Origin: Candidatus Binataceae bacterium
GTDB lineage: Bacteria > Desulfobacterota > Binatia > Binatales > Binataceae
Assembly (NCBI GenBank): GCA_035531675.1
Contig: DATKSL010000033.1
Location: 27,367 to 91,366 of the forward strand
DNA: 64,000 bases
Direction: 5' to 3'
Shown piece after piece: positions 4,452 to 63,549 of this stretch. A program made the translations under genes and the position numbers. The notes beneath the pieces were generated by a model. The model made no database searches. It worked only from the letters and a program-made list of their open reading frames with translations, and was not told the origin of the DNA. The number at the start of each line of letters is the position of its first letter. Position 1 is the stretch's first letter.

Positions 4452-4549
4452 GCTTTCCGGGGTCTCGATTCCGGGCCGCTGGCGTCAGCACCCGCGCGAT
4501 TGGACAATAGTATAAAGCTTCACATCTTGCACCTGCGCTGGAGCAAACG

Positions 4550-19164: not shown

Positions 19165-19260
19165 GGAGGAGGAAGGGGCCCGGTGGCCCCACCGGTCTTC
19201 AAAACCGGCTTAGCGGGCATTGCGCTTGCTGGAAGGTTCGACTCCTTCCCCCCTCCGCCA
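19165..19260 (+). tRNA. selC: tRNA-Sec (selenocysteine tRNA, anticodon UCA)
   Basis: GGAGGAGG-AA-GGGGCC/CGGT/GGCCCC (6-bp D stem, 4-nt loop)-CCGGT/CTTCAAA/ACCGG (anticodon UCA)-long variable arm-GAAGG/TTCGACT/CCTTC-CCCCCTCC-G-CCA. The 8+5 acceptor/T geometry, long variable arm and D-arm match bacterial selC; the loops are identical to E. coli selC. Confidence 0.85.
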
Positions 19261-35800: not shown

Positions 35801-36203
35801 GGATACCGCCAAACCCGTCTCACGTAAGGAGTTGCGCGACTTCGGCCTGATCGTCGGGGGCTTGCTCGCCGCGCTCTTCGGGCTCGGCCTGCCGTTGCTG
35901 AAGCATCGCGCCGTCCCGCTGTGGCCGTGGATCGTGGGCGTCGTGCTGGTGACGGCGGCGCTGGCTTTTCCGTCGGCGCTGCGCGGACCTCATTTTCTGT
36001 GGACGAAATTCGGCCTGGTGCTCGGCTGGATCAATCAACGCATCGTGCTGACGATAGTCTTCTATATTATTCTATTGCCTACCGGCCTGATCATGCGGGC
36101 GCTGGGGCGCGACCCGATGGCACGCGGCTTCGAGCCTGACCGCGAGAGCTATCGCGTCGCCAGCCGCCAGACGCCCGCAAGTTCGATGGACCGGCCGTTC
36201 TGA
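35793..36203 (+). CDS. Small membrane protein, possibly SxtJ-like partner of the carbamoyltransferase
   Basis: Overlaps the carbamoyltransferase stop by 8 nt. 136 aa with 2-3 TM helices. The SxtJ-like assignment is inference from this gene-pair arrangement. Confidence 0.45.
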   Translation: MTEDTAKPVSRKELRDFGLIVGGLLAALFGLGLPLLKHRAVPLWPWIVGVVLVTAALAFPSALRGPHFLWTKFGLVLGWINQRIVLTIVFYIILLPTGLIMRALGRDPMARGFEPDRESYRVASRQTPASSMDRPF

Positions 36204-36211
36204 TTTCGCGC

Positions 36212-36288
36212 GCGCCCGTAGCTCAACTGGACAGAGCATCGGACTTCGGATCCGAGGGTTGGGGGTTCGAATCCCTCCGGGCGCGCCA
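36212..36288 (+). tRNA. tRNA-Arg (anticodon TCG)
   Basis: GCGCCCG-TA-GCTC/AACTGGACA/GAGC-A-TCGGA/CTTCGGA/TCCGA-GGGTT-GGGGG/TTCGAAT/CCCTC-CGGGCGC-G-CCA. Confidence 0.9.
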
Positions 36289-36375
36289 AGTCCCGACGCG
36301 GGTTTCTGGCATTTCCGGGGCTTCCGGAGGGTCGTCTGACTCCCCGCTCTGACTCCCGGAAATTTTCCGAGAGCG
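36289..36375 (+). repeat. Repeat copy R1 (about 90 nt) directly downstream of tRNA-Arg
   Basis: GTCCCGACGC...TTTC..GGC..TTTCCGG...CGTCTGACnCCCCGCTCTGACnCnCCGGAAAT shared with copies at 41256..41340 and 43904..43985. Confidence 0.7.
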
Positions 36376-36488
36376 GTCGGCTAGCCGCCCGCCATCCCCC
36401 AGGAGCGTGACGCTCCGTGACGACCGGTGACAGTTAAGCCAAACTGGGCATGCCAATCGCTCGCTAAATCGGGACTGAGGGTTCAAAT

Positions 36489-37589
36489 TCATCTCGCTCC
36501 GCCGCCGAGTCTGCTCTCAGCGCCAGGGTCAGCGTGGTAATGGTCCTGCAGCGTCCGGCCTGGCGGATACACCTTGACGCTAACCCCGCCGGTAAGAGTG
36601 GCCTGGTTCGTCACGTAGATATATCCCCGCGAATCCAAAGCGATCCCTCGCGCATAGGCGAGACCGGTTCGGGGCCAATCAGCGATAACCGCACTTGGAC
36701 TCAAATTGCCTGAGCCCTTCAGTGGGTAAGCGGTGATGCTGTTGCCATAGAATGGATTGTGGATGTCGCCATTGTAGTTGGAAACGAAGATTCCGGCCGC
36801 GCTGGTGCTGCCGCTCGACGGCGGCACCACTAGCTTCACCGTCGTCGGCCAATGCGGCACCTTGATGTGCGCGTGGACGAGTCCAACCGCACCAGTAAAC
36901 CGCACCGTTCTGATTATTGAGAGCACTGGCACATATCGATCGCGCAGCGGCGGAGTATCAAAGGCCGACTGTATCGAACAGTCGCGCGGTGCGAGAATTT
37001 GGACGCCCCAATGAGCTGCAGCGCGTCCATGAGAGATGCATACAAAAGCCTCGGCCCCGGTCAACCGCAGAGGTTTGCACGAGCGGTCAAAGTCCGGGGG
37101 TATGGTAAAAATGGTATTAGCGTTGCTCGACGCACTTCCGTGGTTGACCAGGAACCGGAGCCAGAGTGTTCCGTTGGCGTCAAGCAAATCCACTATTGCG
37201 TCTGCGGCCGGCAGGCCGACACGCCGCGGATCGCGTTCCCGCACGTGCAGACCTGCGGGATATTCGGCGGGGTATTCGAAGGACAAGCCGGTCGCGGCGT
37301 TGCGATATCTCTTCCAGGCGCGAGGCTTGGCATGGACCACCGATGGGCCCAAGAGGACCGCGCTCAGCAAGATTAGAACCGCGAGCACCTCAAGAACGGC
37401 AATCACGAAGCCGTGCTGCGCGTCGAGGAGCAAAGCATTGGCCTCGGGCTGAGTTCCGTTAAGGTCTCGCCACTTGTCGGGGTTGCCGGGCGCCAAATCG
37501 CTTACTCTCCAATCTTCACCGCTCGGAACTCGCCGGTCTGTTCGTTCAGGGCTGTCAGCTGCATCACCCAGCCATCTTTCGGATAGCAT
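36489..37589 (-). CDS. Hypothetical membrane-anchored protein with NHL/beta-propeller-like repeats near the C-terminus
   Basis: 366 aa; one TM segment; GIALDSRGYIYVTNQ-type motif. The N-terminal start and possible 3' truncation are uncertain. Confidence 0.4.
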   Translation of the reverse strand: MLSERWLGDAADSPERTDRRVPSGEDWRVSDLAPGNPDKWRDLNGTQPEANALLLDAQHGFVIAVLEVLAVLILLSAVLLGPSVVHAKPRAWKRYRNAATGLSFEYPAEYPAGLHVRERDPRRVGLPAADAIVDLLDANGTLWLRFLVNHGSASSNANTIFTIPPDFDRSCKPLRLTGAEAFVCISHGRAAAHWGVQILAPRDCSIQSAFDTPPLRDRYVPVLSIIRTVRFTGAVGLVHAHIKVPHWPTTVKLVVPPSSGSTSAAGIFVSNYNGDIHNPFYGNSITAYPLKGSGNLSPSAVIADWPRTGLAYARGIALDSRGYIYVTNQATLTGGVSVKVYPPGRTLQDHYHADPGAESRLGGGAR

Positions 37590-37677
37590 TCTTCGATATC
37601 ACGAAGCCTCGCGAGTATGTCTTTCGCAACCGTAATGACGACGCGAAACTTCCCGTCACAGTGACGACGCGCCGCAA

Positions 37678-38718
37678 TTACATCGCGGCCGCGCGCAGCA
37701 CCGGGATGGTGCCGGCGCCGAAGTCGCGATACCAATGTTTCTGCTCTTCCGGCGCTGTCCCGCGGCCGAAAATCGCGGCAAAGTGGCCGGCTCCGGAGCT
37801 GCGACACTGCGTTACGATCTGCTCGGCGACGGCGGCCGGCGTGCCGGCGATAAACTCCTCGTCGCCGATCGAAAATGCGTGCGCCGTCGGCGAGTCGAGC
37901 AGCGCGGGACGCTCGGGCGTGTCGACGCGCGGATCGACCTCCAGAAACTTGCGGAACTCGCGCCGCTGCGTCGCCATGATCGACTCGGCCTCGCGGTCGC
38001 TATCAAGCATCGTCACCACGCGGCGCAGGCAAATGTCTTCCGCTCCCACCTTGCGCCCGGCCTTGTCGGCTTCGTCGCGATAGGCGTCGAAAATCTCGAT
38101 CACCTTGCTCTGCGGATGGAAGCCCGTGCAGATCTTGGCGCCGCGGCGCGCCGCCTTGCGCGCCGACGCGGTGCTCACTACGGTCACCCATTTCGGCGGG
38201 GAGGGCTGCTGCAGCGGGCGTGGCGTCAGGCGCAAGTTGTCGAAATTCCAGAACCTGCCGTGATGCGAAATCACAGGACTGACGAGCGCCTTATCGACGA
38301 TCTCGAGCGCCTCGTCGTTGCGGGCGCGGGCTTCTTCCACGCCCAGCCCGACCTGCGCCATTTCCTGCGGGATACCGGCGGCGGTACCGATCTCGAGCCG
38401 CCCGCCGGTGAGATGGTCAAGCATGCCGATTTCCTCGACCAACTCCCACGGCGAATGATACGGCGGCACCACGCCCATCACGCCGAGCCGGATCTTTTTG
38501 GTGCGCAGCGCGACGTTGGCGATCAGCAGGTTGGGCGCGGGCGAATAACTGAGGCCGAAATGATGCTCGCTGAAAAAGATGCCTTCGAAGCCGGCAGGCT
38601 CAGCACTCGCCCAGAGATCGAGATAGGCGTTGAAATACCGTTGCGAAGCGTCCGGATCGAAGTGCTGCACCAGCGCGTGCGGCGAGCCAAAAAATTCAAA
38701 GATCCACGGTTTGATCAT
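37678..38718 (-). CDS. LLM-class flavin-dependent oxidoreductase
   Basis: 346 aa; luciferase-like TIM-barrel motifs. Confidence 0.75.
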   Translation of the reverse strand: MIKPWIFEFFGSPHALVQHFDPDASQRYFNAYLDLWASAEPAGFEGIFFSEHHFGLSYSPAPNLLIANVALRTKKIRLGVMGVVPPYHSPWELVEEIGMLDHLTGGRLEIGTAAGIPQEMAQVGLGVEEARARNDEALEIVDKALVSPVISHHGRFWNFDNLRLTPRPLQQPSPPKWVTVVSTASARKAARRGAKICTGFHPQSKVIEIFDAYRDEADKAGRKVGAEDICLRRVVTMLDSDREAESIMATQRREFRKFLEVDPRVDTPERPALLDSPTAHAFSIGDEEFIAGTPAAVAEQIVTQCRSSGAGHFAAIFGRGTAPEEQKHWYRDFGAGTIPVLRAAAM

Positions 38719-39069
38719 CCGTCACTCCCAGCGATTTTGCCTCTTTTGCGGTCATTCCGGCGCGCGGCTGCCGTGCGAGGAATCCCGATCTGTTACCCTC
38801 TGGTCCTCGTGAGTCCAATCGATAATACCTGCGACCATTTATGACATAACTTCCAGAACCTGTTGCAATAAGCGAAACAAGCCGGTTCTGGGATTTATCC
38901 AGGATGAAGCGCAATTATCACCTGCTCTATAACCCCGAGAAAGACATCGCTGCCCGGGACCCGAAGGTCCCGCCACGCAGCTCATGTTCCCACGCGGGGT
39001 TACGGTTGTTTTGAGTTCAAGGGGCGGCTACCTTCGCACAATGATCCAAGGATCCCGGGAGGGCCAGCC

Positions 39070-39351
39070 ATGCTCGTTCTGATCGCAAAAATAACGGTGA
39101 AGAGCGGCCGCGAACAGGAATTCGAGCGAATCGTCCGAGCTGCCGTACCGCAGGTTCGGGCAGAGCCGGATAATCACGCTTACATCTTTCACCGCTCGCC
39201 GGACAATCCGCGAATGTTCATGTTTTACGAGCAGTACACGGACCAGGCGGCGCTCGATACCCATCGGACACACCTGAAGGAAATGGGCATCGACCTTGCC
39301 TCCTTCCTGGAAGGCGGTATCGTCCGCGAGTTTTACGATCTGTTGGCCTGA
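39070..39351 (+). CDS. Antibiotic biosynthesis monooxygenase (ABM) domain protein (quinol monooxygenase-like)
   Basis: 93 aa ferredoxin-like ABM fold (MLVLIAKITVKSGREQEFE...FMFYEQYTDQAALDTHRTH). Confidence 0.7.
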   Translation: MLVLIAKITVKSGREQEFERIVRAAVPQVRAEPDNHAYIFHRSPDNPRMFMFYEQYTDQAALDTHRTHLKEMGIDLASFLEGGIVREFYDLLA

Positions 39352-40056
39352 CGATTTTAACGGCGAACAAGATCTACGAGGGACCATAAACTGGCGGCAG
39401 GATAGCGGCGTGCCTCGCGGTTGTGTATGCCGCCTTCACCCCCGACCAGTTCGATTTCGTGCTACAGACCCAGCTGCACGTCGAAAGATCATGAGCAACG
39501 CGTTCCGATCGATGATACCGCCCTCATGCGGCAGGATCGTGCGGCACGGGGACGCATTCCGGTACATCCCAGGCCGCTAGCGCAGCGCGGAGGGAGTCAG
39601 GCGGCGGGCAGCCTGCCGCCGAATCGACTCAGGCCGCCTCCCGCTCCCAGCAGGGCAGCTAGTCCGACGATGGACGAGTAACGCGTCCAGCAGTCAGCGT
39701 CAGAAATGGTCGGAAACGTTGCGTGGCCTTCAGCGATTCGCCACATCAATCGCGGAGCATGACGTTGCCCGACTGCAGCGCCATCAACTCGTTTGCTTCA
39801 GGGTATTTCGCCGAAACCGCAGGATACCAGAGATGACTCCCTTGAAGGGCGGCCGCACATGCGCCAGGTATCTTGTTCGCGAAACATGTGCGACCGGGTC
39901 TGATGGCAGCTTGATTCTGCCCTGTGTTACCCATACGCTTCGGTCAACCAATCGTGGTCAGACGCGCGCTTCGGATTCCGCGACGCGACCTCCCGCACCA
40001 ATCAGAGCCCATCATTCGGCGTTACCAGACCAGAATCCAATGGCTCTAGAAATGGA

Positions 40057-41055
40057 GTGTTTGTGTCTTCTTTTAAACGATTTCGGTTGCCGGTGATGCG
40101 TGGGTCGGTCCGCCAACAAACACATCGTCAACCAACGAATTCAGCCATCTCGCGACAAGCTGAGGTTGGCGCGTCAAACGTGGGCGCTGTGACGAGCCCG
40201 GCGATTCAACAATCCGCTGGCGGAGTGGCGGTCCATGGATCGGAGTGGCCGTGGTGGCGCACCACCAGGCATGACGCCATCGTGCTGCCGTGGGTGATTC
40301 TCATCCACGCGACGGCCCTGGTCGGCCTGATCCTGTTTCCGCTGCCCGGATGGCATGTTTTGCTTGGTGCGCTCGCACTCGCCTGGATCGGCGGAATCGG
40401 CACGACGGTCTGCTATCATCGCGCCATCGCTCATCGCGCGGTGCGGCTGAATCCCGCCGTGCGAGCAGTGCTGATCTTCTTTGCGATGTTCAATGGCGCG
40501 GGATCGCCCATCACGTGGGCGGCCAGCCACCGGGTACATCACGCTCACGCTGACACTGCGGGAGATGTTTCAAGCCCAGCATTACATGGATTCTGGTGGG
40601 GTCACTTGCGATGGCTATGGCAAGCCGAGGCGCCTCCGGTCGCGCGACTTTGCCCCGACCTCGATCGTTTTTCATATCGAATCTGGCGGCCCATGCAGCC
40701 GGCCATCCTTGCCCTGTCTTTCTTCGGCGGATTGTATTTCGGCCTTGCGGCCTTCTTCTGGCTTGGTGCGATCCGCTTGGTTTTCTCGCTCCACGCGGTG
40801 TGCTTCGTCAACAGCGTGTGCCACAGCGAACCCGGTACTCCGATTGGCGAGGACTCGAGCCGTAATGTGCGTTGGCTCGCCCTGATGCACTTCTTTCAGG
40901 GCGAGAATTGGCACCGCAACCATCACGCTCGTCCGGCCTTGGCGCGGTTGGGGCGGGCGTGGCACCAGCCAGACGTGGGCTATGTCGTGATTTGTATGCT
41001 GGAAAGCATCGGGCTGGCCAGTGACGTGCGGCGCGCACGTAACTTCGCGTCGTAG
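40057..41055 (+). CDS. Membrane fatty-acid (acyl-CoA/acyl-lipid delta-9-type) desaturase
   Basis: Three histidine boxes HRAIAHR, HRVHHAH, NHHARP with TM helices. The true start is probably downstream of the first track Met. Confidence 0.75.
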   Translation: MFVSSFKRFRLPVMRGSVRQQTHRQPTNSAISRQAEVGASNVGAVTSPAIQQSAGGVAVHGSEWPWWRTTRHDAIVLPWVILIHATALVGLILFPLPGWHVLLGALALAWIGGIGTTVCYHRAIAHRAVRLNPAVRAVLIFFAMFNGAGSPITWAASHRVHHAHADTAGDVSSPALHGFWWGHLRWLWQAEAPPVARLCPDLDRFSYRIWRPMQPAILALSFFGGLYFGLAAFFWLGAIRLVFSLHAVCFVNSVCHSEPGTPIGEDSSRNVRWLALMHFFQGENWHRNHHARPALARLGRAWHQPDVGYVVICMLESIGLASDVRRARNFAS

Positions 41056-41204
41056 CAATCGCCGGTCAGGAGCAATGAGAGACAACAGGTAGAAATCGAC
41101 GGCTGGTCTCTCAAGCTCCGAGTGCGCCGTTACTTTTTGCTCCTTTCCGCCGCAGTACTGCCGCCGGGTCGCCCGCCGGATATCCCGTGCCGCCTTTTCT
41201 TGGA

Positions 41205-41340
41205 GTGGCCTTCGGAGCCGAGGGTTGGGAGATCGAAATCCTTCCGGGCGCACCCGTCCCGACGCCAGTTTCCCGCCTTTTCGGCCGCTCGCTAGTGCCG
41301 TCTGACGCCCCGCTCTGACGCTCCGGAAATTCCGGGAAGC
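41205..41340 (+). repeat. Degenerate tRNA-Arg 3' fragment (anticodon loop to 3' end, about 50 nt) followed by repeat copy R2
   Basis: ggccttcggagccgagggttgggagatcgaaatccttccgggcgcacc parallels the tRNA-Arg segment ggacttcggatccgagggttgggggttcgaatccctccgggcgcgcc, then cgtcccgacgc...cgtctgacgccccgctctgacgctccggaaat. Confidence 0.7.
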
Positions 41341-41753
41341 GAGCGACCGCGACTTGGCCGATCTGCAAGCCCGCGTACCGCACAAGCTCATCCATCAATG
41401 ACCGTTAAGCGCTCGGCCGGCTGGGGATCTGATGCGCCGCGGCCCGCCCGGGATGTCGGCCTTCCTCAAGCTGACCTCTCAGTCAGAAGCTCTCAGAGCC
41501 TGCGTCCCGGTAATCGCCACGGGCACCGTCCGGAGCGGCCAGTCCCTGGATCGGTCGGGAAAAGTCCCGCCTCGGAACAGTGGTACGCCTCGAGGAGCGG
41601 CCCGCCAGCCGAGACGAAAAAAAGGTGAAAGGGCATTGATTGGCATCTGGCCGATTGATAAATTCCGCTTAATTCAGCTAGTGATAAGTTTTTATTGCCT
41701 ATGGTGGGTGCCGTCGTTTTCGACGGCCCATAGCAATATCGAGGGGGGCCGAA

Positions 41754-43771
41754 ATGTCGAGAAAATATGGTCTGCGGTTGGGGATGCTGGACCTGGTGCT
41801 CGCCCTGGTAATCGTTTTGGGGGGATGTGGCTCGGGGGGCGGCGGCGGGAAATACGTACCGCCAGCACCGGCCGGGGTCAGGCTGACCTCGATCACGATC
41901 GACCCGAACAATCCCGCAATCGCCGCTGGCACTAGCGTGCAATTGCAGGCCACCGGAAATTACTCCAATGGTACGACCAGGAATTTGACGGACACGGTTA
42001 CCTGGACGTCGAATGACGGGACCATTGCGCAAGTCAGCAGTTCCCTTCCAACCAAAGGCTTGACGACGGGGAGAGTACCGGTTCCACGTTGATAAACGCG
42101 ACGCTGGGATCGATCCAGGGGTCGACGACCATCGTCGTTACACCCGCCACGTTGGCTTCGATTAACGTCGATCCCCCCAACCACTCTCTCGCCAAAGGCA
42201 CCACGCTTCAATTTACCGCGACCGGAAATTTCACCGACGGCACCACCCAGACGCTGACCACGACCGCAACGTGGATGTCCGCCGACGCAACGATCGCCGC
42301 GGTCAGCGATATGGCTGGCAGCAAGGGTCTGGTGAGCGGCGTCGATCTGGGAACCGTCAGCATCACCGCGACGCAGTCCGCAATCAGCGGATCGGCCAAC
42401 GTTACCGTGACGCCCCCGACGCTCGATTCAATCACTGTAGAGCCAGTAAATCCGTCAATCGCGAAGGGCACTGAAATTCAATTGATGGCCACCGGGAATT
42501 TCTCGGACGGCACCACGCAGGACTTGACGGATGCCGCCACCTGGACCTCCGCCGCCAGCACCGTGGCTGCGGTCGGCGACACCGCGGGCAGCAAAGGGCT
42601 GGTGAGCGGATTAACGGTCGGCAGTGCTGCGATCACCGCATCCTTCGGGGCCGTCGATGGCTCCTCGACCGTAACCGTCACCTCTGCCCGATTGACCCAT
42701 ATCACCGTGGATCCGGCCTCCTCGAGCATCGCCAAGGGCACTTCCGTCGAGTTGAAAGCGAGCGGCGACTTCACAGATGGGACCACGCAGGACATTACGG
42801 ATCAGGTTGGCTGGACCTCGTCAAACAATTCGATTGCGGAAGTCAGTAACGCCGCCGGTACGCAGGGACTGGTCTCCGGAAACGACCTCGGCAGCGCGAC
42901 CATCGAGGCGACCCTCGAAGGTATTCATGGATTCGCATCGGTGACCGTAACCTCGGCGGTGCTGACGTCGATTACCGTGACGCCGGCGGATCCCACGATC
43001 TCCGAAGGAACCAACATCCAATTGATGGCGACGGGTCACTTCTCCGACTCCAGCACTGAAGATCTAACGGACGAAGCCGGATGGATCTCGGCGGACAACA
43101 CCATAGCCGACGTCAGCAATTCCCCCGGCACGAAAGCCCTGGTCACGGGAATCGGCATGGGCGTTGCGGCCGTCACGGCGACCTTTGACGGCGTGCAAGG
43201 TTCCACCAATGTAACCGTGACTGCGGCGACCCTGGTATCGATTACCGTCACCCCCGCCACGCCCTCGATCGCGAAGGGCACGACGGTACAATTGACGGCT
43301 ACCGGTCTGTTCTCCGACGCGACTACCCATGACCTGACCGACGAAGTTGGCTGGACTTCCGCCAACGCCGCCGTTGCTCAGGTCGACAGTTCGCCCGGCT
43401 ACGAAGGACTGGTCACTGGAACCGGCGTAGGCAGCACTGCCATTACCGCCACGCTCAACGGTGTCCAAGGCTCAACTACGGTGACCGTGACTGCCGCGAC
43501 GCTGCTGTTCATTACCATCACCCCGTCGAATCCGACGATGATGGATGGGACGATGCTGCAGCTCACGGCAATCGGCCACTACTCTGACTCAACCACTCAG
43601 GACGTCACCTCATCGGCGGATTGGATATCATCAGACACCCGCGTCGCCCACGTTATCACCAGTTCTGCGCATACCAACGGGCGGGTGATTGCGCGCCGCG
43701 CCGGGACGACAACCATCACTGCCGTGGTTGGCGACCTGCAGGGATCGACGGTTGTAACAGTGACGCCATGA
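41754..43771 (+). CDS. Surface lipoprotein with 7 tandem bacterial Ig-like (Big_2) domains; reading frame broken by a frameshift in a G4 tract near 42068..42071
   Basis: Lipobox LGGC after the signal peptide. The repeat unit ...LxSIxVxPxxxSIAKGTxxQLxATGxFSDGTTQDLTDxxxWTS...GLVSG... continues across the track ORF boundary (41754..42092 and 42089..43771) only with a -1 shift: ...TKGLTTG / ESTGSTLINATL. Either one missing G (5 Gs expected) or a genuine slip. Confidence 0.6.
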
Positions 43772-43852
43772 GGCAAATTTCGCAGGACTGCAACCTACGA
43801 TAGCGTGGCGCGGGACATCGGACTGCGGACCTGAGTGTAGTATCTGCGGGAA

Positions 43853-43888
43853 AACGAGGCCGGTATTCTTCCGGCCTCGTCCCTTTTC
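43853..43888 (+). terminator. Rho-independent terminator after the Big_2 gene
   Basis: cgaggccgg tattctt ccggcctcg followed by tcccttttctg. Confidence 0.6.
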
Positions 43889-43890
43889 TG

Positions 43891-43985
43891 CTCCGGGCGC
43901 GCCCCCGTGCCACACGGATTTCCCGCCTTTTCGGCCGCTCGCTAACGCCGTCTGACCTCCCTCGCTGACTCCCCGGAAATGCTCG
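43891..43985 (+). repeat. Short tRNA-Arg 3'-end fragment (ctccgggcgcgcc) followed by repeat copy R3
   Basis: 13-nt identity to the tRNA-Arg 3' end, then tttcccgccttttcggccgctcgctaacgccgtctgacctccctcgctgactccccggaaat. Confidence 0.6.
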
Positions 43986-44049
43986 GCGGCGGCGAGCGTC
44001 GGACCTGACAACAAGGCGGGCTGCTCGTCGCGTACCTCGCGAGGAATCT

Positions 44050-44565
44050 GTGTCGTCCCGTCAAATGGATCGAGCAGCGCAATTCTTTGAGCCGCCGAAT
44101 TTTTGCGCGCCGTTCGGCACCCACGCTGCGGTGGTCGAGGTTGATACCGAAACCGGAAGCGTTAACTTCCGGCGCTACGTTGCCGTCTATGACTGCGGAA
44201 CCGTGATCAATCCGCTGATCGTGGAGGGTCAGGTACACGGCGGCACCTCACAGGGCATCGGCCAGGCGCTCTACGAGGCTGTCCATTACGATGAGACCGG
44301 TCAGTTGCTGAGCGGTAGCCTGATGGACTACGCGGTACCCAAGGCGACGATGCTCTCGCACTTCGAAATCGCGAATACCGTCACGCCGACGCCGATCAAT
44401 CCGCTCGGCGCGAAAGGCATCGGCGAATCCGGATGCATCGCCGGCAGCGCCTGCGTGCTGAACGCCGTGCTTGATGCGCTGTCGCCGCTGGGTGTGCGCA
44501 GCCTCGAGATGCCGCTCAAGCCCGCGCGCATCTGGCGCGCCATCCACGAGGCGAAGCAGCGCTAA
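44050..44565 (+). pseudogene. 3' remnant (C-terminal about 170 aa) of a xanthine dehydrogenase/CoxL-family molybdopterin-binding subunit
   Basis: FGTHAAVVEVDTETGSVNFRRYVAVYDCGTVINPLIVEGQVHGGTSQGIGQALYE...PINPLGAKGIGESG...NAVLDAL is the conserved C-terminal domain of roughly 750-aa CoxL-type proteins. No N-terminal 600 aa upstream; the remnant starts right after repeat R3. Confidence 0.65.
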
Positions 44566-44873
44566 CGGCGACCCGCCGGGGTCTGCAGGCCGGCCGCCAC
44601 CCTGACCGCGCTGATTGGCTCTCCAGTTGGTCCTGATGCGCCCTCACGTTAAAGTCGATACGTTGGTCGTGCGGTATGGGATCAATCCGTCTGGCGGTTA
44701 CCAGGCACATCATCATTAGATAAGAGACGGGCAATCCCAACCTGAGTGATTAGAAGCTTTTGCGATCGCCGTGGAGCGGCGCATGGCCTCACGGCCTGAC
44801 TACTTGACTCGCTTCCGCCGCGACGTAGAATATCGCGTGAAGACGGGTTAAGAAGCGATAAATTGGGGCGGGC

Positions 44874-45140
44874 ATGAAGCGAACGACGATAGTGGGATGG
44901 GTGGCGCTAATCCTGATGGCACTGTTGGTGGTGCAACCCGTCACCGCACACGCCTACGTCGGTCCTACCGCCGGGTTGAGCCTCTTTAGCGCAGCGGTTG
45001 GCCTGCTGGTCGCTATATTCTCCGCCTTCGCAATTATTCTTCTGTGGCCGATACGTATGTTGCTCAAGTGGATCAGGGGCGCCAAAAGCACTGCGATTGA
45101 GACGGCCGAGCCTCCTCAATCCGGCGCGCCGGTGAGCTGA
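44874..45140 (+). CDS. Small membrane/secreted protein, hypothetical
   Basis: Signal peptide plus one TM helix; in the lower-GC block. Confidence 0.4.
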   Translation: MKRTTIVGWVALILMALLVVQPVTAHAYVGPTAGLSLFSAAVGLLVAIFSAFAIILLWPIRMLLKWIRGAKSTAIETAEPPQSGAPVS

Positions 45141-45194
45141 CCGCGCACACCACATCCTCTGGCTTTGTGATTGGACGCGCATGAGGCCGCGACG

Positions 45195-45959
45195 ATGGGG
45201 CTGTTCGATGTGCCGGCGCCGCTGTTTGCCTTAGTAGGTGCGTGGCTGAATCCACTGCTGCCGGACTCGGCGAGAATCGCGCTGTGGGGAGGAGTGGTCG
45301 GCGGGCTCGCAACTACTATCTACTGGCTGCTCTCACCGCAGCAGCGCATCGTCGAAATTCGCGCCAGGGCGCGTGTAGTAAGAAATGCCTTGCTTCGCTA
45401 CGACGGTGAATTCCGCGGCGTCCTGACCTTGACCGGCGAGTCGCTGGCGCTCTCTCTAAAGGAACTATCGCTGGTGATCGGGCCTGCTCTTGCCGCTTCA
45501 ATCCCGGCCCTTTGTCTGATCGCCTATCTGGGAAACAGTTACGATTACTATCTGCCATCGGCGGGTACGATGGTGTCGGTGCGCGTGAAACCGGCCGACG
45601 CCGCAGTCCACTGGTCCCCGCCTTCGGTCCTCGATCCCGAGGGTGGAGTATTCAGGATTCAATGGCCGCAATCCGGCCATGCAATCCAACTTATGTCCTC
45701 GCGCGGTGGAACGCTGGCGAGCTTTCCATTGCGCAAGCCGATCCCGAACATACAAAAGTTCGTCTGGTGGAATTTCCTGTTCGGAAATCCGGCCGGCTAT
45801 GTTCCCGCCTCGGCTGAGGTGTCGTCGATCGAACTGAAACTGACGCCCAGAGAGTTTCTATCCGTCGGTCCTGGATGGCTGCGCGGATGGGAAACGATCT
45901 TTTTCTTCTTCGCCAGCATCACGGCGCTTACTTTCCGAAAGCTATTGGTGGTGCAGTGA
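45195..45959 (+). CDS. Integral membrane protein, hypothetical
   Basis: Multiple hydrophobic helices; GAGG RBS before the ATG at 45195. Confidence 0.45.
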   Translation: MGLFDVPAPLFALVGAWLNPLLPDSARIALWGGVVGGLATTIYWLLSPQQRIVEIRARARVVRNALLRYDGEFRGVLTLTGESLALSLKELSLVIGPALAASIPALCLIAYLGNSYDYYLPSAGTMVSVRVKPADAAVHWSPPSVLDPEGGVFRIQWPQSGHAIQLMSSRGGTLASFPLRKPIPNIQKFVWWNFLFGNPAGYVPASAEVSSIELKLTPREFLSVGPGWLRGWETIFFFFASITALTFRKLLVVQ

Positions 45960-45962
45960 GCG

Positions 45963-47087
45963 ATGGCGACCGAGATTTCCTCGCCGTCACTCAGAAACGA
46001 AGCATTTTACGTTTCGAGCTGGATTCATCGTCTCGGCGGCTTGATCGCCAACCATCCGAAGCTCTCGATTCGTCTCGGCAACCTCGAATCGAGCTATCTC
46101 AGCGACCAGCTTGCGCCGATCCGAATCGATCGCCCGATCTACATAACCGGCCTGGCCCGCGCCGGCACCACTATCCTGCTGGATATCGTGGCCTCCTGCG
46201 ACGGTATCGCGACTCATCGATATCGCGATTTTCCGCCGATCTTCACGCCCTTTGCCTGGAACTGGTGGTTGGAACATATTCCGCTCAAGGAATCGCCACC
46301 GACCGAGCGCGCCCACTCCGATGGAATATTCGTCACGCCTGAAAGCCCTGAGGCGATGGAGGAGATGCTGTGGATGGCTTTTTTCCCGCAGCTTCACAAT
46401 CCCGCGCAGAGCAACGTCCTCGATGCCTCGGTCGCCAACCAAGCGTTCGAAACTTTCTACCGCGATCATCTCAAGAAGCTGATTCTCACCCGCCATGGAC
46501 GACGTTACGCTTCAAAAGACAATTATCACATCACTCGACTCGAATATCTGCACAAACTGTTTCCCGACGTCCGCTTTGTAATTCCGATCCGTCATCCTGC
46601 GGCCCATATCGCCTCGCTGATAAAGGAGCATCGCCTGTTTATCGAGGCTCATCGGCGTCACCCGCGCGCGCTGACCCACTTCCAGCGCGTCGGACATTTC
46701 GAATTCGGCGCTGACCTCAGGCCAATCAACGTCGGCGATACTGCCAGAGTCTGCGAGATTCAGGCCCTGTGGAATAGCGGCGACGAGGTGCGGGGTTGGG
46801 CGCGCTATTGGGCAATGATCTACGGCTTTGCCATCGATCGGCTCGACGCGAACCCGGCTCTACGCGGCGCATCGCTCGTGATGCGCTTCGAGGAGCTGTG
46901 CGCTAACCCGCAATCGGCGCTGACCCGTTTGTGCGAGCACTGCGGCCTGGACGGCGCTGACGCTATCGCACGACATGCCGAACGCCTGCACACCCCGACT
47001 TATTATCAGGCCAAGTTCTCTGCAGGTGAGCTCGCGAGCATCGACGAGGAAACCAGATCAGTAAGACAGCGCTTCGGATACGAGTGA
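45963..47087 (+). CDS. Sulfotransferase family protein
   Basis: 5'-PSB-like GLARAGTTIL loop and 3'-PB RHP...S region; 374 aa; about 52% GC. Confidence 0.65.
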   Translation: MATEISSPSLRNEAFYVSSWIHRLGGLIANHPKLSIRLGNLESSYLSDQLAPIRIDRPIYITGLARAGTTILLDIVASCDGIATHRYRDFPPIFTPFAWNWWLEHIPLKESPPTERAHSDGIFVTPESPEAMEEMLWMAFFPQLHNPAQSNVLDASVANQAFETFYRDHLKKLILTRHGRRYASKDNYHITRLEYLHKLFPDVRFVIPIRHPAAHIASLIKEHRLFIEAHRRHPRALTHFQRVGHFEFGADLRPINVGDTARVCEIQALWNSGDEVRGWARYWAMIYGFAIDRLDANPALRGASLVMRFEELCANPQSALTRLCEHCGLDGADAIARHAERLHTPTYYQAKFSAGELASIDEETRSVRQRFGYE

Positions 47088-47114
47088 CTATCCGTCGAGC
47101 CGGAGATAGAGTCA

Positions 47115-48434
47115 ATGGCACGAACACCAAATTGGTTTGGCCACTTGAACCGAACAGCCCTGTTTCTGGTATTCGGCTTCTTCTGCGTACTGTTCGGTTT
47201 CCTTGCCACCATTACCGGGATGTTCCCCGCCCCCTTTTTCCGTGCCGCACTCCTTGAGCTCTCCGGACGCGGTGCGGTCGGTTTATTTCAATCCGACCTC
47301 TATGTTCCAGCCGACTCCGCAAAGGCAGGAATCACCCGTTACGATCCGCAACGAGCCTACAACGGCTATACGATTTTCACCTCAGCCCACACTCAAGGCG
47401 CATTTCTGATCGATATGAAAGGAAAGGTGGTCCACAAATGGGCGCTACCTTATTCGAAGGTATGGAACAGAGATGCCGCGGTAACAAAGCCCCCTACCAC
47501 AGGTGTCTTTTGGGACAAAGCCTACCTCTATCCCAACGGGGACGTGCTCGCCATTTACAGCTGTTTGGGACAGCGGCTTTACGGCTGCGGGCTTGTGAAA
47601 ATGGATCAGTACTCGCATCCGCAGTGGACCTATCTTAAGCATGTGCATCACGACGTTACGGTCGGAGCGGATGGCAAGATTTACACGCTTACCCAAAGAT
47701 CCAGAGCGCAGGTGCCTCCAGCAGCCGGCGACATCGCGCTGCCCACCATCGACGACTCTGTGGTCGTGCTGTCGCCTCAAGGAAAGGTACTCAAAGAGGT
47801 CTCGGTGCTGGATGCGCTTGCCGGGTCAAAGTACCACGGCATCCTCGCCCTTCAGCGATATATGGGTGAGGAAGGTTACGATCAGGATCCCCTCCATGTT
47901 AATAGCGTTACACCGATGCCGGCGAGTTTTCGCAAGACATTTCCCTTCGCCGGACCGGATACGGTACTCATTTCAAGCCGGGATCTCGATACTATCGCAT
48001 TACTTGACCTGGATTCCGGGAAAATAGTCTGGCTGCTTCATGGACCGTTTGCCCGGCAACACGATGCAGAATTCCTTGCCAACGGAGATTTGATGGTTTT
48101 CGACGATCTCGGAGATACTTCGAACGGGAGGTATAGCCGTGTTCTGGAATTCCAACCGGATCCATTCAAGATTGTATGGCAGTTTCCGGGCGACAGCGGA
48201 GAAAAGCTTGACAGCGAAATTCTCGGCTCGGTTCAGAAGCTCCCCAACGGCAACGTGCTGATTACAGACGGCGACAAGGGGCGAATTCTCGAAGTTACGC
48301 CGGAAAAGAAAGTTGTATGGGAATACAACAATGCTTTTCGGCAGGGAGATAAGAAGGAGTACGTACCGATAATCCGCTGGGCGCGTCGCTTCGCCCCCGA
48401 TCGACTACATTTTAAGTTGGACCAGGATGGTTGA
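47115..48434 (+). CDS. Membrane-anchored beta-propeller protein, arylsulfotransferase (ASST)-like
   Basis: N-terminal TM, then propeller-like repeats with HD..V..DG.IY / NGN.L..D motifs reminiscent of ASST. The family call is tentative. Confidence 0.4.
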   Translation: MARTPNWFGHLNRTALFLVFGFFCVLFGFLATITGMFPAPFFRAALLELSGRGAVGLFQSDLYVPADSAKAGITRYDPQRAYNGYTIFTSAHTQGAFLIDMKGKVVHKWALPYSKVWNRDAAVTKPPTTGVFWDKAYLYPNGDVLAIYSCLGQRLYGCGLVKMDQYSHPQWTYLKHVHHDVTVGADGKIYTLTQRSRAQVPPAAGDIALPTIDDSVVVLSPQGKVLKEVSVLDALAGSKYHGILALQRYMGEEGYDQDPLHVNSVTPMPASFRKTFPFAGPDTVLISSRDLDTIALLDLDSGKIVWLLHGPFARQHDAEFLANGDLMVFDDLGDTSNGRYSRVLEFQPDPFKIVWQFPGDSGEKLDSEILGSVQKLPNGNVLITDGDKGRILEVTPEKKVVWEYNNAFRQGDKKEYVPIIRWARRFAPDRLHFKLDQDG

Positions 48435-48707
48435 TCCTGCCTACGTTCGGTCAATGAAGAGGACCATGCGCCGCCTAGTAGAGCCGCATGCCACTGCCGT
48501 CGCGGCGAGTTCGCAATCGAAGTGTTGTCGGCGTTCAACCAGTTCAACCTGAACTCATAGAAACGCGGTGCTTTTCCCGCACCAACGCCCCGCGGAAGAC
48601 TTGCAGAAGAAGCCCGCCCGGCCTATACGGAAGCAGTGATCGAGACTGACGGCGGCAATCGCGGTACAATGCCGCCAGCGATTCGACCAACGAGGAGTCA
48701 GGCCATT

Positions 48708-49286
48708 ATGTCGCGCATACGTCCCGCCAAATTTGTCCATGTGGTTTACCGTACCCGGCGCTTCGAGCAGATGGTCCAGTGGTACCGGGCGGTGTTCGAC
48801 GCCAAGGTGCAGTTTCAGAACCCGGTGCTGGCCTTTCTCACCTATGATGACGAGCATCATCGGATTGCACTGATCAACATGGCAGAGGCGCAACCGCAAG
48901 GGACCGAGAGCGATCGGCGCGGGGTGATCGGCGTCGATCACGTCGCCTACACCTATGCATCGGTCAACGACCTGTTCGAAAATTACGCGCAATTGAAGGA
49001 GCAGGGCATCCTGCCCTACTGGTGTATCCACCACGGCGTGACGCTCTCGATGTACTACGCCGATCCCGATGGCAACCAGATGGAGTTTCAGGTCGATGCT
49101 TTCGGCTCGGCCGAAGAGGCCAACGCATATATGCGTGGTCCGCACTACGGCACGAATCCGATCGGCGTCGAATACGACCCGGACGAAATTCTGGCCCGGC
49201 TGCGCTCCGGGACGCCAGGGTCTGACTTCCTGATGCGCCAGAGCGATCTACCGATAGCGCCACTTCGCGGGTCAATCGGATCCTGA
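48708..49286 (+). CDS. VOC family protein (extradiol dioxygenase/glyoxalase fold)
   Basis: FVHVVYRT...HHRIAL...VDHVAY; GAGGAG RBS before the ATG at 48708. Confidence 0.65.
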   Translation: MSRIRPAKFVHVVYRTRRFEQMVQWYRAVFDAKVQFQNPVLAFLTYDDEHHRIALINMAEAQPQGTESDRRGVIGVDHVAYTYASVNDLFENYAQLKEQGILPYWCIHHGVTLSMYYADPDGNQMEFQVDAFGSAEEANAYMRGPHYGTNPIGVEYDPDEILARLRSGTPGSDFLMRQSDLPIAPLRGSIGS

Positions 49287-49654
49287 GCGTCGCCACGGGG
49301 GAACCGTGAAGCCGGCGCCACGGTCAGCGATATTTCTGTGGTGAGCCGCACCGTAGCGATCCGATGAATAAAATCGTGATTCCTACGATCGAGCAAATCG
49401 CCTCGATGTCGATCGAACGCTGCCAACATGAACGGATACGGCTGAGAAACGAAATCTCATTCGCGCGCGGTAACACGCTTTGGGGCGGGCCATCGGCGGA
49501 AGAGAAGATTGCCGCGTAAGCGCGGGGTCCCTCCACTTCATTCCTTTTGAGCCAGCAGCCTGCTCTCTTGTTACCACCTTTTTCAGTCTCAGTGCTAAAG
49601 TGGCGAACTTGGTCAGCTAGCGGTGCGCACAGAGCAGAGATAAGGGGTGCCGTG

Positions 49655-50848
49655 ATGGGATCAGCGCAGCAGATCAGGCGCAAGCCCGGCCGTCCCGGGA
49701 AAGAATACGCTCCGTACCTGGAAGCGGCCTGGGGATTCAAGAACCATTGGTACCCGGCGCTGTTCAGCGACGAGCTGCCGGAAGGCTCGCTGCGCGGCGT
49801 TATGATCGCCGGTCACGAGATTGCGCTGCGCCGGGCCAAAGGCAAGGTCTACGCGCTGGCGGATCAATGCGCGCATCGGGGCGTGAAGATTTCCGCCCGT
49901 CAGATGTGTCTCAACGACGAGCATCTGACCTGCTGGTACCACGGCTTCTGTTACGGTCTCGAGGACGGCGTGCTGAAGACCATTGTCGGCTCGCCGAAGG
50001 ATCCGATAATCGGCAAGGTCAGGATTCGCACCTACCCGCTGGAGGAGCGCAGCGGGATCATCTTCGTCTTCGTCGGCGACCCGGATTATCGGCCGCTCCC
50101 GTCGCTCAGTGCGGACCTGCCAATTCCGATCACGGACGATCCGAATCCTACGCCCCATCTGCTCGAAGAGGGGCTCTTCGTGCGCGGCATCCACGCGCTG
50201 GCAAGATCCAACTGGCGGCTGGGAGCGGAGAATGCATTCGATCCCGGTCACGTGCTCATTCACTGGGATAACGCGATCGTCGCCGCGACCGATTCATTCA
50301 TCCCGCTGGGCTTTCACCCGACGTCGCCGGAGGCGGTGAAGATCATCGATCTGCCCGACGGCCCGAAAGGGATAATGAATATGTACAATACCGGCGCTTA
50401 CGAATTAGTCACTGAGAATCTGGTCGCCGGCATAAAGTCGCGCGGCAGCAATCATCATTACCTCCGCACCTCGTTCTATCTGCCGGGATGCCTGCTGGTC
50501 GAGCATTGGCCATTGACCGGGTTGGCAATTTACGGCTGGTACGTTCCGACCGACGATCAGCATCACGAATACTGGGACGTTGTAATCGGCCGCTACAACA
50601 GCGAAGCGGAGCGCAAAAACCTGGATTTCAAGTACGAGAAAATGTTCAAGCCGCTGCACTTCGAGGACTTCTACAGCAATGACATTTTCGCGCGCGAGGC
50701 GATGCAACGCTACTACGCTCGGCAGGACGGGTGGAGCCGTGAACAGCTTTGCGAGCTCGACTCGGGAATCGTTACCTGGCGAAAACTCGCCTCACGCTAT
50801 AACCGCGGTATCCAGGCGCCGCCCGATTGGGCCGCCCCGCGCGACTAG
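49655..50848 (+). CDS. Rieske [2Fe-2S] domain oxygenase
   Basis: CAHRGVKIS...CWYHGF; AAGGGGTG RBS before the ATG at 49655. Confidence 0.8.
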   Translation: MGSAQQIRRKPGRPGKEYAPYLEAAWGFKNHWYPALFSDELPEGSLRGVMIAGHEIALRRAKGKVYALADQCAHRGVKISARQMCLNDEHLTCWYHGFCYGLEDGVLKTIVGSPKDPIIGKVRIRTYPLEERSGIIFVFVGDPDYRPLPSLSADLPIPITDDPNPTPHLLEEGLFVRGIHALARSNWRLGAENAFDPGHVLIHWDNAIVAATDSFIPLGFHPTSPEAVKIIDLPDGPKGIMNMYNTGAYELVTENLVAGIKSRGSNHHYLRTSFYLPGCLLVEHWPLTGLAIYGWYVPTDDQHHEYWDVVIGRYNSEAERKNLDFKYEKMFKPLHFEDFYSNDIFAREAMQRYYARQDGWSREQLCELDSGIVTWRKLASRYNRGIQAPPDWAAPRD

Positions 50849-50886
50849 ACGAGATGTCCTTGCCAGGCGGGCGGGGCGGTAAAGCA

Positions 50887-52230
50887 ATGGCCGGCACCAC
50901 CAGGCAGATTCCGTTCACGGCGGACCAGGAGCGATGGTACGCAGCCGCGTGGGAGCGCTTCAACCTCGATCGTCTCAAGACGCTGCTCATCGAGCTGGTC
51001 AATATTCACAGCCCGACCGGTGCCGAGCGCGAGGCGGCCGAGTTCCTGGCGAGCTATCTCAAGGCCCACCTTGGCGGGCGCGCGGTCTATCAGCCGGTCA
51101 GCGATCTTACCGGCAACTGTTTCGGCGAGGTTCGCGGCGCCACAGGCGCGACGGGAGCGCGACTGATGCTTTATGCGCCGCTCGATACTCATCTCGACGC
51201 CGATCCGGAAACCGACGTGCCGTGGGTAGGTTCCGCGTTGCGCCCCGATATGGTGCCCCGGGCATCCGTCGAGGGGGATTTCATCATCGGCCTCGGCGCT
51301 TCCAATCCGAAGAGCATGGTGGCGACGCTGACCGAAGTGGCGACCGCGCTCTACGAAAGCGGCATCCCGCTCATCGGCGCATTGCAGCCGGCCTTCGCCG
51401 GCGGAGGAATGTCGGTAAATTCGCCGCGCCGGCGGCATTACGGGTTAGGCGATGGCGTGTATCATCTGATCTCGCGCGGCGTCGGCCCGGATTTCGCAAT
51501 CATCATGAAGCCAATCTGGGCGGTCTACTCAGAAGAGCCCGGGCTCTGCTGGTTTCGAATATCGGTCCGCGGCACACTGGCCTACGCCGGCTCGCCGCGC
51601 ACAGTGGTGGGCGATCGCAGCTCGATTCTTCCCGCCGCCGTTCTGATCCCCGAGATCGATCAGTGGATACGTGAATACACCGCCCGCAATGCCGCGAATA
51701 CGCTTTCGCCGGAAGGAAAGATTACTGCGCTGCGGGCCGGTTGGCCCGATCGCTTCGCTTACTCATCGGCGACTACCGAGATTTACGTCGACGTTCGCTG
51801 TACGCCCGCGATGACGCTGGGCGAGGTGAACGCACAGTTCTCGGCCGGGATGGAGACGATTCGCCGGCGCCATCCGGAGGTCGAGTTCGATTGGGAGATG
51901 ATTGCGGCGCTGCCCGGCGGCGCGACCGACCCGGACAACTGGATAATCCAATCCTGCCGCAGAGGCTGGGAATGCGTCGAAGCGCGACCGCATGGCGATC
52001 CGCCGCGGATGGGTGGCAGAACAGACGGCTCGCTAATTCGCCGACTTGGCATCCCGACCGCGCGTATCGGCTTCCCGTGGCCCGCTGCAAACACGCCGGA
52101 GCCGTATACGCAGGGCATGGGCGGGATGGGCGTCGCCTGCCTTCCCGACCTGGTCACATGCGCAAAGGCGATTATGTACGCGGTTATCGACACACTTAGC
52201 AGAACGCGCACGGAACTCGGACTTCGGTGA
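50887..52230 (+). CDS. M20 family metallopeptidase / amidohydrolase (ArgE/DapE/CPG2-like)
   Basis: LIELVNIHSPTGAEREAAEFL N-terminal motif and metal-binding regions. Confidence 0.6.
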   Translation: MAGTTRQIPFTADQERWYAAAWERFNLDRLKTLLIELVNIHSPTGAEREAAEFLASYLKAHLGGRAVYQPVSDLTGNCFGEVRGATGATGARLMLYAPLDTHLDADPETDVPWVGSALRPDMVPRASVEGDFIIGLGASNPKSMVATLTEVATALYESGIPLIGALQPAFAGGGMSVNSPRRRHYGLGDGVYHLISRGVGPDFAIIMKPIWAVYSEEPGLCWFRISVRGTLAYAGSPRTVVGDRSSILPAAVLIPEIDQWIREYTARNAANTLSPEGKITALRAGWPDRFAYSSATTEIYVDVRCTPAMTLGEVNAQFSAGMETIRRRHPEVEFDWEMIAALPGGATDPDNWIIQSCRRGWECVEARPHGDPPRMGGRTDGSLIRRLGIPTARIGFPWPAANTPEPYTQGMGGMGVACLPDLVTCAKAIMYAVIDTLSRTRTELGLR

Positions 52231-63213: not shown

Positions 63214-63549
63214 ATGCGAGTGCGTATCACCGAATATCTGGACGCCGACCTCGACACTGAAACCTGGGTTTGTAATCGATGCCAGGCCGGCCTCGGCGCG
63301 CTTAGCCGTTCCTACAAGGAAGGGTGCCTGGTGCGGGAACGGGATCCCAGGGAAATACATATGCCGGTCGGAACGGATCGCGAATTCAACTTCAGCTTCG
63401 ATCCGGACTGGATTCGCATCGTTGAATTTTACTGTCCGGGATGCGGTACGATGGTTGAGAATGAGTATCTGCCGCCCGGCCATCCGCTGACCTGGGATAT
63501 CGAACTAGACATCGAGGATCTGAAGCGCAAGCGGGAGTCCGGCCGATGA
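63214..63549 (+). CDS. Acetone carboxylase gamma subunit (AcxC)-like small zinc-ribbon protein
   Basis: 111 aa; CNRC...CPGC; EFYCPGCGTMVENEYLPPGHP is reminiscent of the hydantoinase/acetone-carboxylase gamma family; directly upstream of a hyuA-like gene. Confidence 0.5.
   Translation: MRVRITEYLDADLDTETWVCNRCQAGLGALSRSYKEGCLVRERDPREIHMPVGTDREFNFSFDPDWIRIVEFYCPGCGTMVENEYLPPGHPLTWDIELDIEDLKRKRESGR

Follow-up and report, generated by a model that had tools for sequence, protein, structure and literature searches.

The window analysed here is a stretch of 64,000 nucleotides from contig DATKSL010000033.1 of Candidatus Binataceae, an uncultured soil bacterium, and metagenome contigs match it at 99.98–100% identity; its carbamoyltransferase is likewise assigned to Candidatus Binataceae in the source databases. 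It contains an intact tRNA-Arg(TCG) gene that is followed by three copies of a repeat, termed R, the second and third of which are each preceded by a displaced fragment of the same tRNA gene. We consider it likely that three or more integrative elements, now decayed, lie here in a tandem array and were inserted serially at the anticodon-arm region of this tRNA gene. The features that define the array are given below, where P' stands for the integrase-proximal arm of an attachment site. The DNA between R1 and fragment 2 is referred to as module A and that between R2 and fragment 3 as module B.

36212..36288, + strand: intact tRNA-Arg(TCG), found by ARAGORN and by Rfam (RF00005, 70 bits); taken as the target of integration, which forms the attB side of the present attL
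36289..36400, + strand: R1, P'-arm-like, assigned to the innermost (putatively latest) element; nhmmer E 5e-27
41203..41254, + strand: tRNA fragment 2, anticodon arm to 3' end; 42 of 53 aligned positions identical to tRNA positions 26–77
41255..41366, + strand: R2, P'-arm-like, assigned to the middle element; nhmmer E 3e-28
43816..43903, + strand: tRNA fragment 3, consisting of an anticodon-arm piece (43816–43838) and the acceptor 3' strand (43891–43903)
43904..44015, + strand: R3, P'-arm-like, assigned to the outermost (putatively oldest) element; nhmmer E 4e-27

The tRNA gene, the three R copies behind tRNA-derived sequence and the degenerate tRNA copy in front of R2 were all present in a preliminary description of this DNA, and all are borne out. 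A profile built from the three R copies recovers each of them at an E value of about 1e-27 and finds nothing more in the window. Repeat finding and alignment give a unit length of about 110 nt (n = 3), and pairwise identity over the first 90 nt is 67–76%. Past positions of about 36400, 41366 and 44015 the homology is not significant, with a best local score of 24 compared with a mean of 18.9 and a maximum of 26 for shuffled sequences. The invariant core of R, CGTCTGACNNCCCNCNCTGAC, has three matches in the window where 0.03 are expected. This 21-nt core and a pair of tandem repeats that is described below are unchanged in all three copies, while the remainder of R has diverged by 24–33%. The copies have one shared orientation and each lies directly after tRNA-derived sequence. 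A short hairpin followed by a T-run opens R1 at 36291–36308.

The preliminary description had suggested a search for R at other loci. The core, with 17 specified bases, was scanned against 185,579 species-representative genomes and against a metagenome collection of the Joint Genome Institute (JGI), and the R copies of the source species itself did not turn up in either collection. The scans returned 37 and 52 stretches, respectively. Under the R profile all of these are confined to the core region, and they are therefore taken as chance matches. R is also absent from 1.3 Mb of loci that were fetched for comparison, except for contigs of the same locus.

The anticodon-stem dyad of fragment 2 is preserved through a compensatory change from A–T to C–G. 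In fragment 3 the anticodon-arm piece is identical to the tRNA at 19 of 23 positions, with a T to G change in the anticodon, and the acceptor 3' strand is identical at all 13 positions. The T-arm between them is replaced by a 52-nt segment that contains the terminator of the preceding gene (43854–43890). The preliminary description recognized the exact 13-nt 3' end in front of R3 and missed the anticodon-arm piece. Since this third copy retains such a piece as well, both fragments begin at the anticodon arm, at about tRNA position 26–28, as in the anticodon-centred class A of tRNA-gene integration sites. Four of the five anticodon-stem pairs are kept in each fragment.

No integrase, transposase or excisionase was found among the tested open reading frames (ORFs) of the window, in line with the earlier statement that no integrase is left. 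The larger ORFs were searched with Pfam, precomputed Pfam assignments were used for 25.8–55 kb and all ORFs of at least 50 aa were compared using phmmer with the integrase of a related element, L107, to which we turn now.

Integrase genes behind the same tRNA in related loci

Relatives of the locus were reached through the genomic context of carbamoyltransferase homologs.

L104: carbamoyltransferase 97% identical (aa), flanks 94.5% identical (nt); intact tRNA-Arg(TCG), the same hairpin for 20 nt and an ABM gene after about 80 nt
L105 (GCA_035504735.1): carbamoyltransferase 92% identical; a Cu-oxidase gene before the tRNA, of which only nucleotides 1–40 are present (14032–14071)
L107: carbamoyltransferase 89% identical; intact tRNA with a tyrosine integrase gene of opposite orientation directly behind it, then genes for a protein of 238 aa, HTH_17 and a DUF3854 protein of 876 aa
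L108: carbamoyltransferase 84% identical; a MazE/PemK toxin–antitoxin pair, the tRNA not being within reach

The DNA after SxtJ and the tRNA is entirely different in all four relatives (carbamoyltransferase identity 84–97%), which makes the locus a hypervariable hot spot of integration. Between close relatives the modules show no synteny, a comparison that the preliminary description had asked for.

The tRNA-Arg(TCG) gene is 100% identical in L107 (79 of 79 nt). Two further loci, L115 and L118, resemble L107 in having an integrase gene, encoded on the other strand, immediately 3' of tRNA-Arg(TCG). The three integrases are mutually 67–85% identical, L115 being 67% and L118 85% identical to L107, and HTH_17 and primase-type genes adjoin those of L107 and L115. 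Among viral contigs of IMG/VR the L107 integrase finds relatives at 30–39% identity only, which is uninformative. After alignment of the tRNA together with its downstream DNA, a tandem repeat containing TGAC is found at nearly the same place in these spacers and in R, with offsets counted from the end of the tRNA to the first TGAC.

L107: ATTGACCACCAC / TCTGACCACTAC; first TGAC at +48; period 12 nt
L118: GTTGACCACTAG / TTTGACCACTAC; first TGAC at +48; period 12 nt
L115: TTTGACAGCCAT / TCTGACAGCCAA; first TGAC at +49; period 12 nt
R1: TCTGACTCCCCGC / TCTGACTCCCGGA at 36335–36360; first TGAC at +49; period 13 nt
R2: TCTGACGCCCCGC / TCTGACGCTCCGG at 41301–41326; first TGAC at +49; period 13 nt
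R3: TCTGACCTCCCTC / GCTGACTCCCCGG at 43951–43976; first TGAC at +50; period 13 nt

The two repeat units agree with each other within an element (8–11 of 12–13 positions) and differ across elements. With both strands counted, the 64 kb contain the pattern TGAC-N8/9-TGAC only six times, and the R copies account for three of these occurrences. The probability of a chance match within the 3-nt offset window is of the order of 1e-4 per independent lineage, a rough estimate that was made after the pattern had been seen. An integrase homolog with 53% identity lies at a different gene, tRNA-Leu(TAG), in L144 (10001–12100), where TCTGACAGCCAC/TTTGACAGCCAT is present between the tRNA and the integrase. 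The tandem TGACAGCC repeat of L144 has a period of 12 nt as in the L107 clade, but its offset is +64. As it is retained by such a distant homolog, the tandem TGAC repeat looks like a hallmark of the family. L144 also has a second, truncated Phage_integrase gene, which lies beyond tRNA-Leu(TAG) on its other side.

From their position, their tandem form and the matching of the two units within an element, and by analogy with integrases of the lambda type, the tandem TGAC repeats are predicted to be arm-type integrase-binding sites, and TTGACCAC and TCTGACTCCC are the candidate arm-type repeats for the integrase of the L107 clade. Because R1–R3 share both the tandem repeat and its offset with the integrase-linked spacers, the best reading of R is that of a P' arm belonging to this family's attachment site. 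In the intact elements an integrase gene comes after this arm; behind each of the three R copies that gene is missing. Together, the integrase elements at the identical tRNA gene and the common repeat speak for the scar of serial site-specific integration that the preliminary description had put forward.

The crossover of this integrase clade is likely to lie near the anticodon arm. The tRNA-Arg(TCG) gene of L105 breaks off at the anticodon loop's 3' edge, near the point from which the fragments resemble the tRNA, and unrelated DNA comes next. The break is due either to an insertion that left the tRNA unrestored or to a join made during assembly.

In three elements the gene immediately upstream of the integrase codes for a protein of 190–280 aa that has a basic tail and, C-terminally, a CGNR-like zinc finger. 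This protein possibly has a conserved accessory or regulatory role in the element family. The genes for CGNR-like proteins are the following.

L107: 15372–16088
L115: 9321–10004
L144: 9250–9999
L011: 4664–5245
L114: 260–1090

A polymorphic insertion and the cargo of the island

At 210 nt from the tRNA lies a second attachment site that is empty in the window and occupied in a co-occurring metagenome-assembled genome (MAG).

36498..36512, + strand: core CCGCCGCCGAGTCT of the second attachment site; empty in the window, occupied in MAG GCA_035534115.1

This MAG comes from the same population, with flanks that are 99.99% identical, and has an insertion of at least 1.45 kb between 36498 and 36512. 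Contig L002 includes the tRNA and R1 and departs from the window after 36512, with 648 nt that are new (10721–11368); contig L011 comes from module A and departs from the window after 36498, with 804 new nucleotides (4495–5298). The junctions have the common core CCGCC(A/G)CCGAGTCT. At its right end (P arm) the insertion contains five GGTTGACA repeats, three in the form TGTCAACC and two in the form GGTTGACAG; the stem-loop after them, TCGGA-CTGCGTCA-TCCG, imitates the anticodon arm. This mimic includes the 12-mer CATCGGACTGCG, which is identical in fragment 3. In Logan contig L114 (1150–1480) a right end (90% identity) and a left end (75% identity) are contiguous and form an attP-type junction. 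Hence the junctions B–B', B–P', P–B' and P–P' are all recovered; this is a site-specific insertion and mobility at the locus is live. The gene at the end of the insertion codes for a CGNR-like zinc-finger protein, the C-terminal region of which is related to the proteins encoded upstream of the L107, L115 and L144 integrases. There is no integrase at the sequenced ends of the insertion, nor between the CGNR-like gene and the att site.

An overlapping segment, S1 (36471–36512, GAGGGTTCAAAT...), was considered as a further scar of a tRNA 3' half and was rejected, its alignment score being equalled by 87 of 500 shuffled sequences. A rare motif, G(G/A)GTTCAAA, is similar to a variable loop and T-loop joined together, as in the tRNA-Arg variant with TTCAAAT. 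GTTCAAA has two sites in the 64 kb; besides 36471–36512 in the window, it recurs beside att-type junctions in L002 (10888–10928), L105 (about 14140) and L114 (about 1455).

The R copies are interspersed with the following genes and gene remnants.

36489–37589, − strand: hypothetical protein of 335/366 aa, no Pfam match at E ≤ 0.001
37678–38718, − strand: LLM-family oxidoreductase (Pfam PF00296)
39070–39351, + strand: ABM monooxygenase (Pfam)
39428–39484 and 39519–39786, + strand: remnants of a Lactamase_B (metallo-beta-lactamase-fold) gene that is intact in L104 (12884–13747)
40057/40180–41055, + strand: fatty-acid desaturase (Pfam)
41754..43771, + strand: Big_2 lipoprotein gene with seven repeats (Pfam Big_2), split into ORFs 41754–42092 and 42089–43771 in different frames
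44050..44565, + strand: C-terminal 171 codons of a coxL-type molybdopterin enzyme gene, matching positions 194–280 of 283 of the MoCoBD_2 profile only
44874..52230, + strand: probable cargo of the outermost module, with two sulfotransferases, a glyoxalase, a Rieske oxygenase and hypothetical proteins (GC3 and precomputed Pfam)

For module A, the LLM oxidoreductase, the ABM monooxygenase and the desaturase of the preliminary description are confirmed by Pfam, and the first gene, then called NHL-like, is left as a hypothetical protein. Module A, earlier described as a delimited module, is also not one clean cassette: blastn shows that L104 lacks 36309–38982 of the window, yet it has the ABM gene, in a segment that is 96.9% identical to 38983–39428 and is followed by an intact Lactamase_B gene and then an amidohydrolase. 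As this segment is common to both, the ABM/Lactamase_B part probably predates the split of the window and L104 lineages. R is not detectable in L104. A shortened R is conceivable there, but MAFFT pairs TGACG...TGACG at +27/+38 only across a gap of 30 nt, and no match at E < 1 is obtained with nhmmer. The desaturase in L009 (7664–8026), which is from the same population, is called as 120 aa only and several contigs stop at 40407–40456; this hints at a polymorphism or frameshift variant in the gene.

The Big_2 lipoprotein of module B has the seven repeats and the terminator ascribed to it earlier. A consensus scan of 36100–44700 found no sigma-70-like promoter, although the gene had been credited with an AT-rich promoter of its own, and the gene is split by a frameshift. 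Six repeats lie in the long ORF (560 aa) and one in the short ORF (112 aa). The shift is of 1 nt near the GGGG run at 42068–42071, with the break within 42068–42092, and the second frame continues the same domain. An identical split is called by three independent assemblies. The gene is probably a pseudogene; the split is either that of a true pseudogene or a slippery or phase-variable site.

The coxL-type gene behind R3 is truncated as previously stated. It begins 35 nt past R3, and its truncation marks a deletion that probably took out the integrase of the outermost element.

The GC content at third codon positions (GC3) is 0.64–0.75 in most genes of the 36.4–52.2 kb region, and most core genes have 0.80–0.86. 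Within the island, higher values are found for the LLM gene (0.81) and for the coxL fragment (0.78). Since the low GC3 continues past R3, with 0.66–0.75 for the genes of 44874..52230, a third, outermost module reaching to about 52 kb is likely. No counterpart of this cargo is present in the flanks of the relatives. The exact 11-mer TCGGACTTCGG at 52217–52227 could mark an outer end of the island, a reading that was rejected since chance alone would yield about two 11-mers of this kind per window and a tRNA 3' half does not come after it. TCGGACTTCGG corresponds to the anticodon stem plus loop of the tRNA and lies at the end of ORF 50827–52230, where GC3 steps from 0.75 to 0.84.

Two observations concern the surroundings of the island. 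An acetone-carboxylase/hydantoinase cluster adjoins Meth_synt_2 in L107 (5730–6507); in the window (63214–63994) it is inverted and lies 27 kb past the tRNA. This displacement suggests a rearrangement across the island region. At the other side, a tRNA-Sec is present at 19165–19260 and ORF 3939–4451 matches glycine/sarcosine/betaine reductase selenoprotein B (GRDB).

Origin of the array

A history by which this arrangement probably arose can be outlined as follows. A tyrosine integrase of the Phage_int_SAM_3 plus Phage_integrase type would recombine the attP of the element with the tRNA gene. The element would supply a tRNA copy of its own, which starts at the anticodon arm and extends to the 3' end, followed by a P' arm in which a tandem pair of arm-type repeats (TCTGAC...TCTGAC) lies about 48 nt past the tRNA end, with the integrase gene just beyond. 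At every insertion the copy brought by the newcomer would restore the tRNA, and the earlier tRNA 3' part would be pushed outward together with its P' arm. Repeated insertion would produce the order tRNA–R1, fragment–R2, fragment–R3, with R1 the newest and R3 the oldest. Later deletions would then have taken the integrase genes after each R along with adjacent DNA. Such losses fit the locus, as coxL is truncated shortly after R3 and cargo starts soon after R1 and R2.

Several points weigh against this history. R itself is seen only in this population and its link to an integrase is one of architecture; nhmmer gives no significant alignment of R to the spacers of L107, L115 and L118. The search for an integrase covered the 64 kb only, and such a gene could lie elsewhere in the genome. 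The position of the crossover is taken from L105 and the fragments only, since the attR far ends of the integrase-bearing elements in the relatives were not captured. No P-arm features, that is, arm-type repeats, can be recognized to the left of fragments 2 and 3. Finally, module A is a mosaic in which the 36309–38982 indel relative to L104 has no duplication marking it.

The modules of the array are most likely fixed remnants. Alternatively, the R-bounded modules might still be mobile as integrase-less cassettes that are excised or moved, singly or jointly, by an integrase encoded elsewhere or on a co-resident element, as is the case for cis-mobilizable elements (CIMEs), which together with their mobilization through accretion are documented in other bacteria (PMC5704250). 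The constancy of the core and arm-type repeats amid the divergence of the rest of R would suit such a scenario, as would the anticodon-stem pairs kept in both fragments and the related polymorphic element 210 nt from the tRNA, which in the same population has a visible end without an integrase. Against this, all recovered contigs of the population that span modules A and B have a single arrangement and no module-loss junction is seen among them. On the left of fragments 2 and 3 no P-arm repeats are visible, and fragment 3 has had its T-arm replaced. Decay of the cargo is witnessed by the truncated coxL, the frameshifted Big_2 gene and the Lactamase_B remnants, and the ABM segment common to L104 argues for a long residence. 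The choice between remnants and cassettes mobilized in trans leans to remnants, and we regard continued mobility of the modules as unlikely. There is also a small chance that the tRNA-Arg locus serves as a multi-cassette exchange platform, in which a family integrase acting in trans would shuffle segments via the TGAC repeats and the anticodon-arm cores. If so, the polymorphic insertion at 36498–36512 would be a live example of cassette exchange.

A very improbable origin is a local segmental duplication of the tRNA-Arg region, the paralogs of which became pseudogenes, with R as a terminator, promoter or small RNA. The hairpin and T-run at the start of R could indeed terminate the tRNA transcript, and RNAalifold draws a fold for R at −21 kcal/mol. 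That fold has no covariation support, with an unfavourable covariation term of +0.99, and an Rfam scan of 35500–45500 finds the tRNA only and no family that matches R. Both fragments share their start at the anticodon arm and are not copies of the whole gene; the DNA between the copies is unrelated cargo with a foreign GC3; and in L107, L115 and L118 it is integrase elements with the same positioned tandem repeat that follow this tRNA.

That R is a dispersed REP-like (repetitive extragenic palindromic) or MITE-like (miniature inverted-repeat transposable element) family clustered here by accident is hardly credible, as its partial internal dyad symmetry and a weak minus-strand self-match of the R model (E 0.06) stand against three copies in 64 kb in a single orientation, always after tRNA-derived sequence, against core scans of genomes and metagenomes that gave chance matches only and against its absence from 1.3 Mb of other loci.

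Relation to known systems and significance

Arm-binding tyrosine integrases of the lambda/L5 type have arm-type sites in attP. The elements at tRNA-Arg(TCG) resemble this type in that the spacer separating core and integrase gene contains a tandem pair of direct repeats whose distance to the core is fixed, and in the co-variation of the repeat sequence within an element. They differ in that the TCTGAC/TTGAC motif with its 12–13-nt period and the specificity for tRNA-Arg(TCG) are known here from sequence comparison only.

CIMEs and tandem accretion have been described for elements of the ICESt1/ICESt3 type in Streptococcus (Pavlovic et al., 2004; Bellanger et al., 2011; reviewed in PMC5704250). 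As in CIMEs, the DNA was integrated site-specifically and no longer has its genes for integration and transfer while keeping att-derived repeats: modules A and B code for metabolic or surface proteins only. Unlike in CIMEs, the target is the anticodon arm of tRNA-Arg(TCG), the phylum is Binatota and only P'-derived att halves are recognizable. For the present array, mobilization by a helper element is hypothetical, and its partly pseudogenized cargo looks more decayed than that of functional CIMEs.

In the Islander database (PMC4383910), class A sites account for 2083 of 3919 islands, with sublocation classes from Williams (2002). Arrays of at least three islands are rare, with four cases in 2168 whole genomes, and a member of a tandem is accepted only with its own integrase gene (PMC4383910). 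The locus shares with these islands an intact tRNA and displaced 3' fragments of the same tRNA, all in direct orientation on the + strand and with a class A anticodon start. It differs from them in that no tyrosine integrase is found inside the islands among the tested ORFs of the window, and it is a fossil version of the pattern. Since an integrase is demanded in each member, Islander would discard this array.

Fragments of prokaryotic tRNA genes left by integrative elements are reported to cause mis-annotation (PMC9897764). Fragments 2 and 3 are, like those, partial, non-functional tRNA copies beside foreign DNA. Unlike the cases cited here from that work, they give rise to no tRNA mis-annotation as they are too degenerate for ARAGORN.

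Tandem decayed islands at tRNA genes are already well known and the current understanding is not overturned. For annotation, the 16 kb that follow tRNA-Arg, from 36.3 to about 52 kb, are to be seen as horizontally acquired, partly decayed and outside the core metabolism of this lineage of Binataceae. Two useful by-products come out of the comparison: the P'-arm signature and, for an integrase clade of the Binatota, its target specificity. The signature, a tandem TCTGAC/TTGAC about 48 nt from the tRNA end, can flag integrase-less remnants of the kind that Islander discards. Together with the tRNA-Arg(TCG) target and the CGNR-like protein, it provides an outline, at the sequence level, of an integrase clade in the little-studied Binatota.

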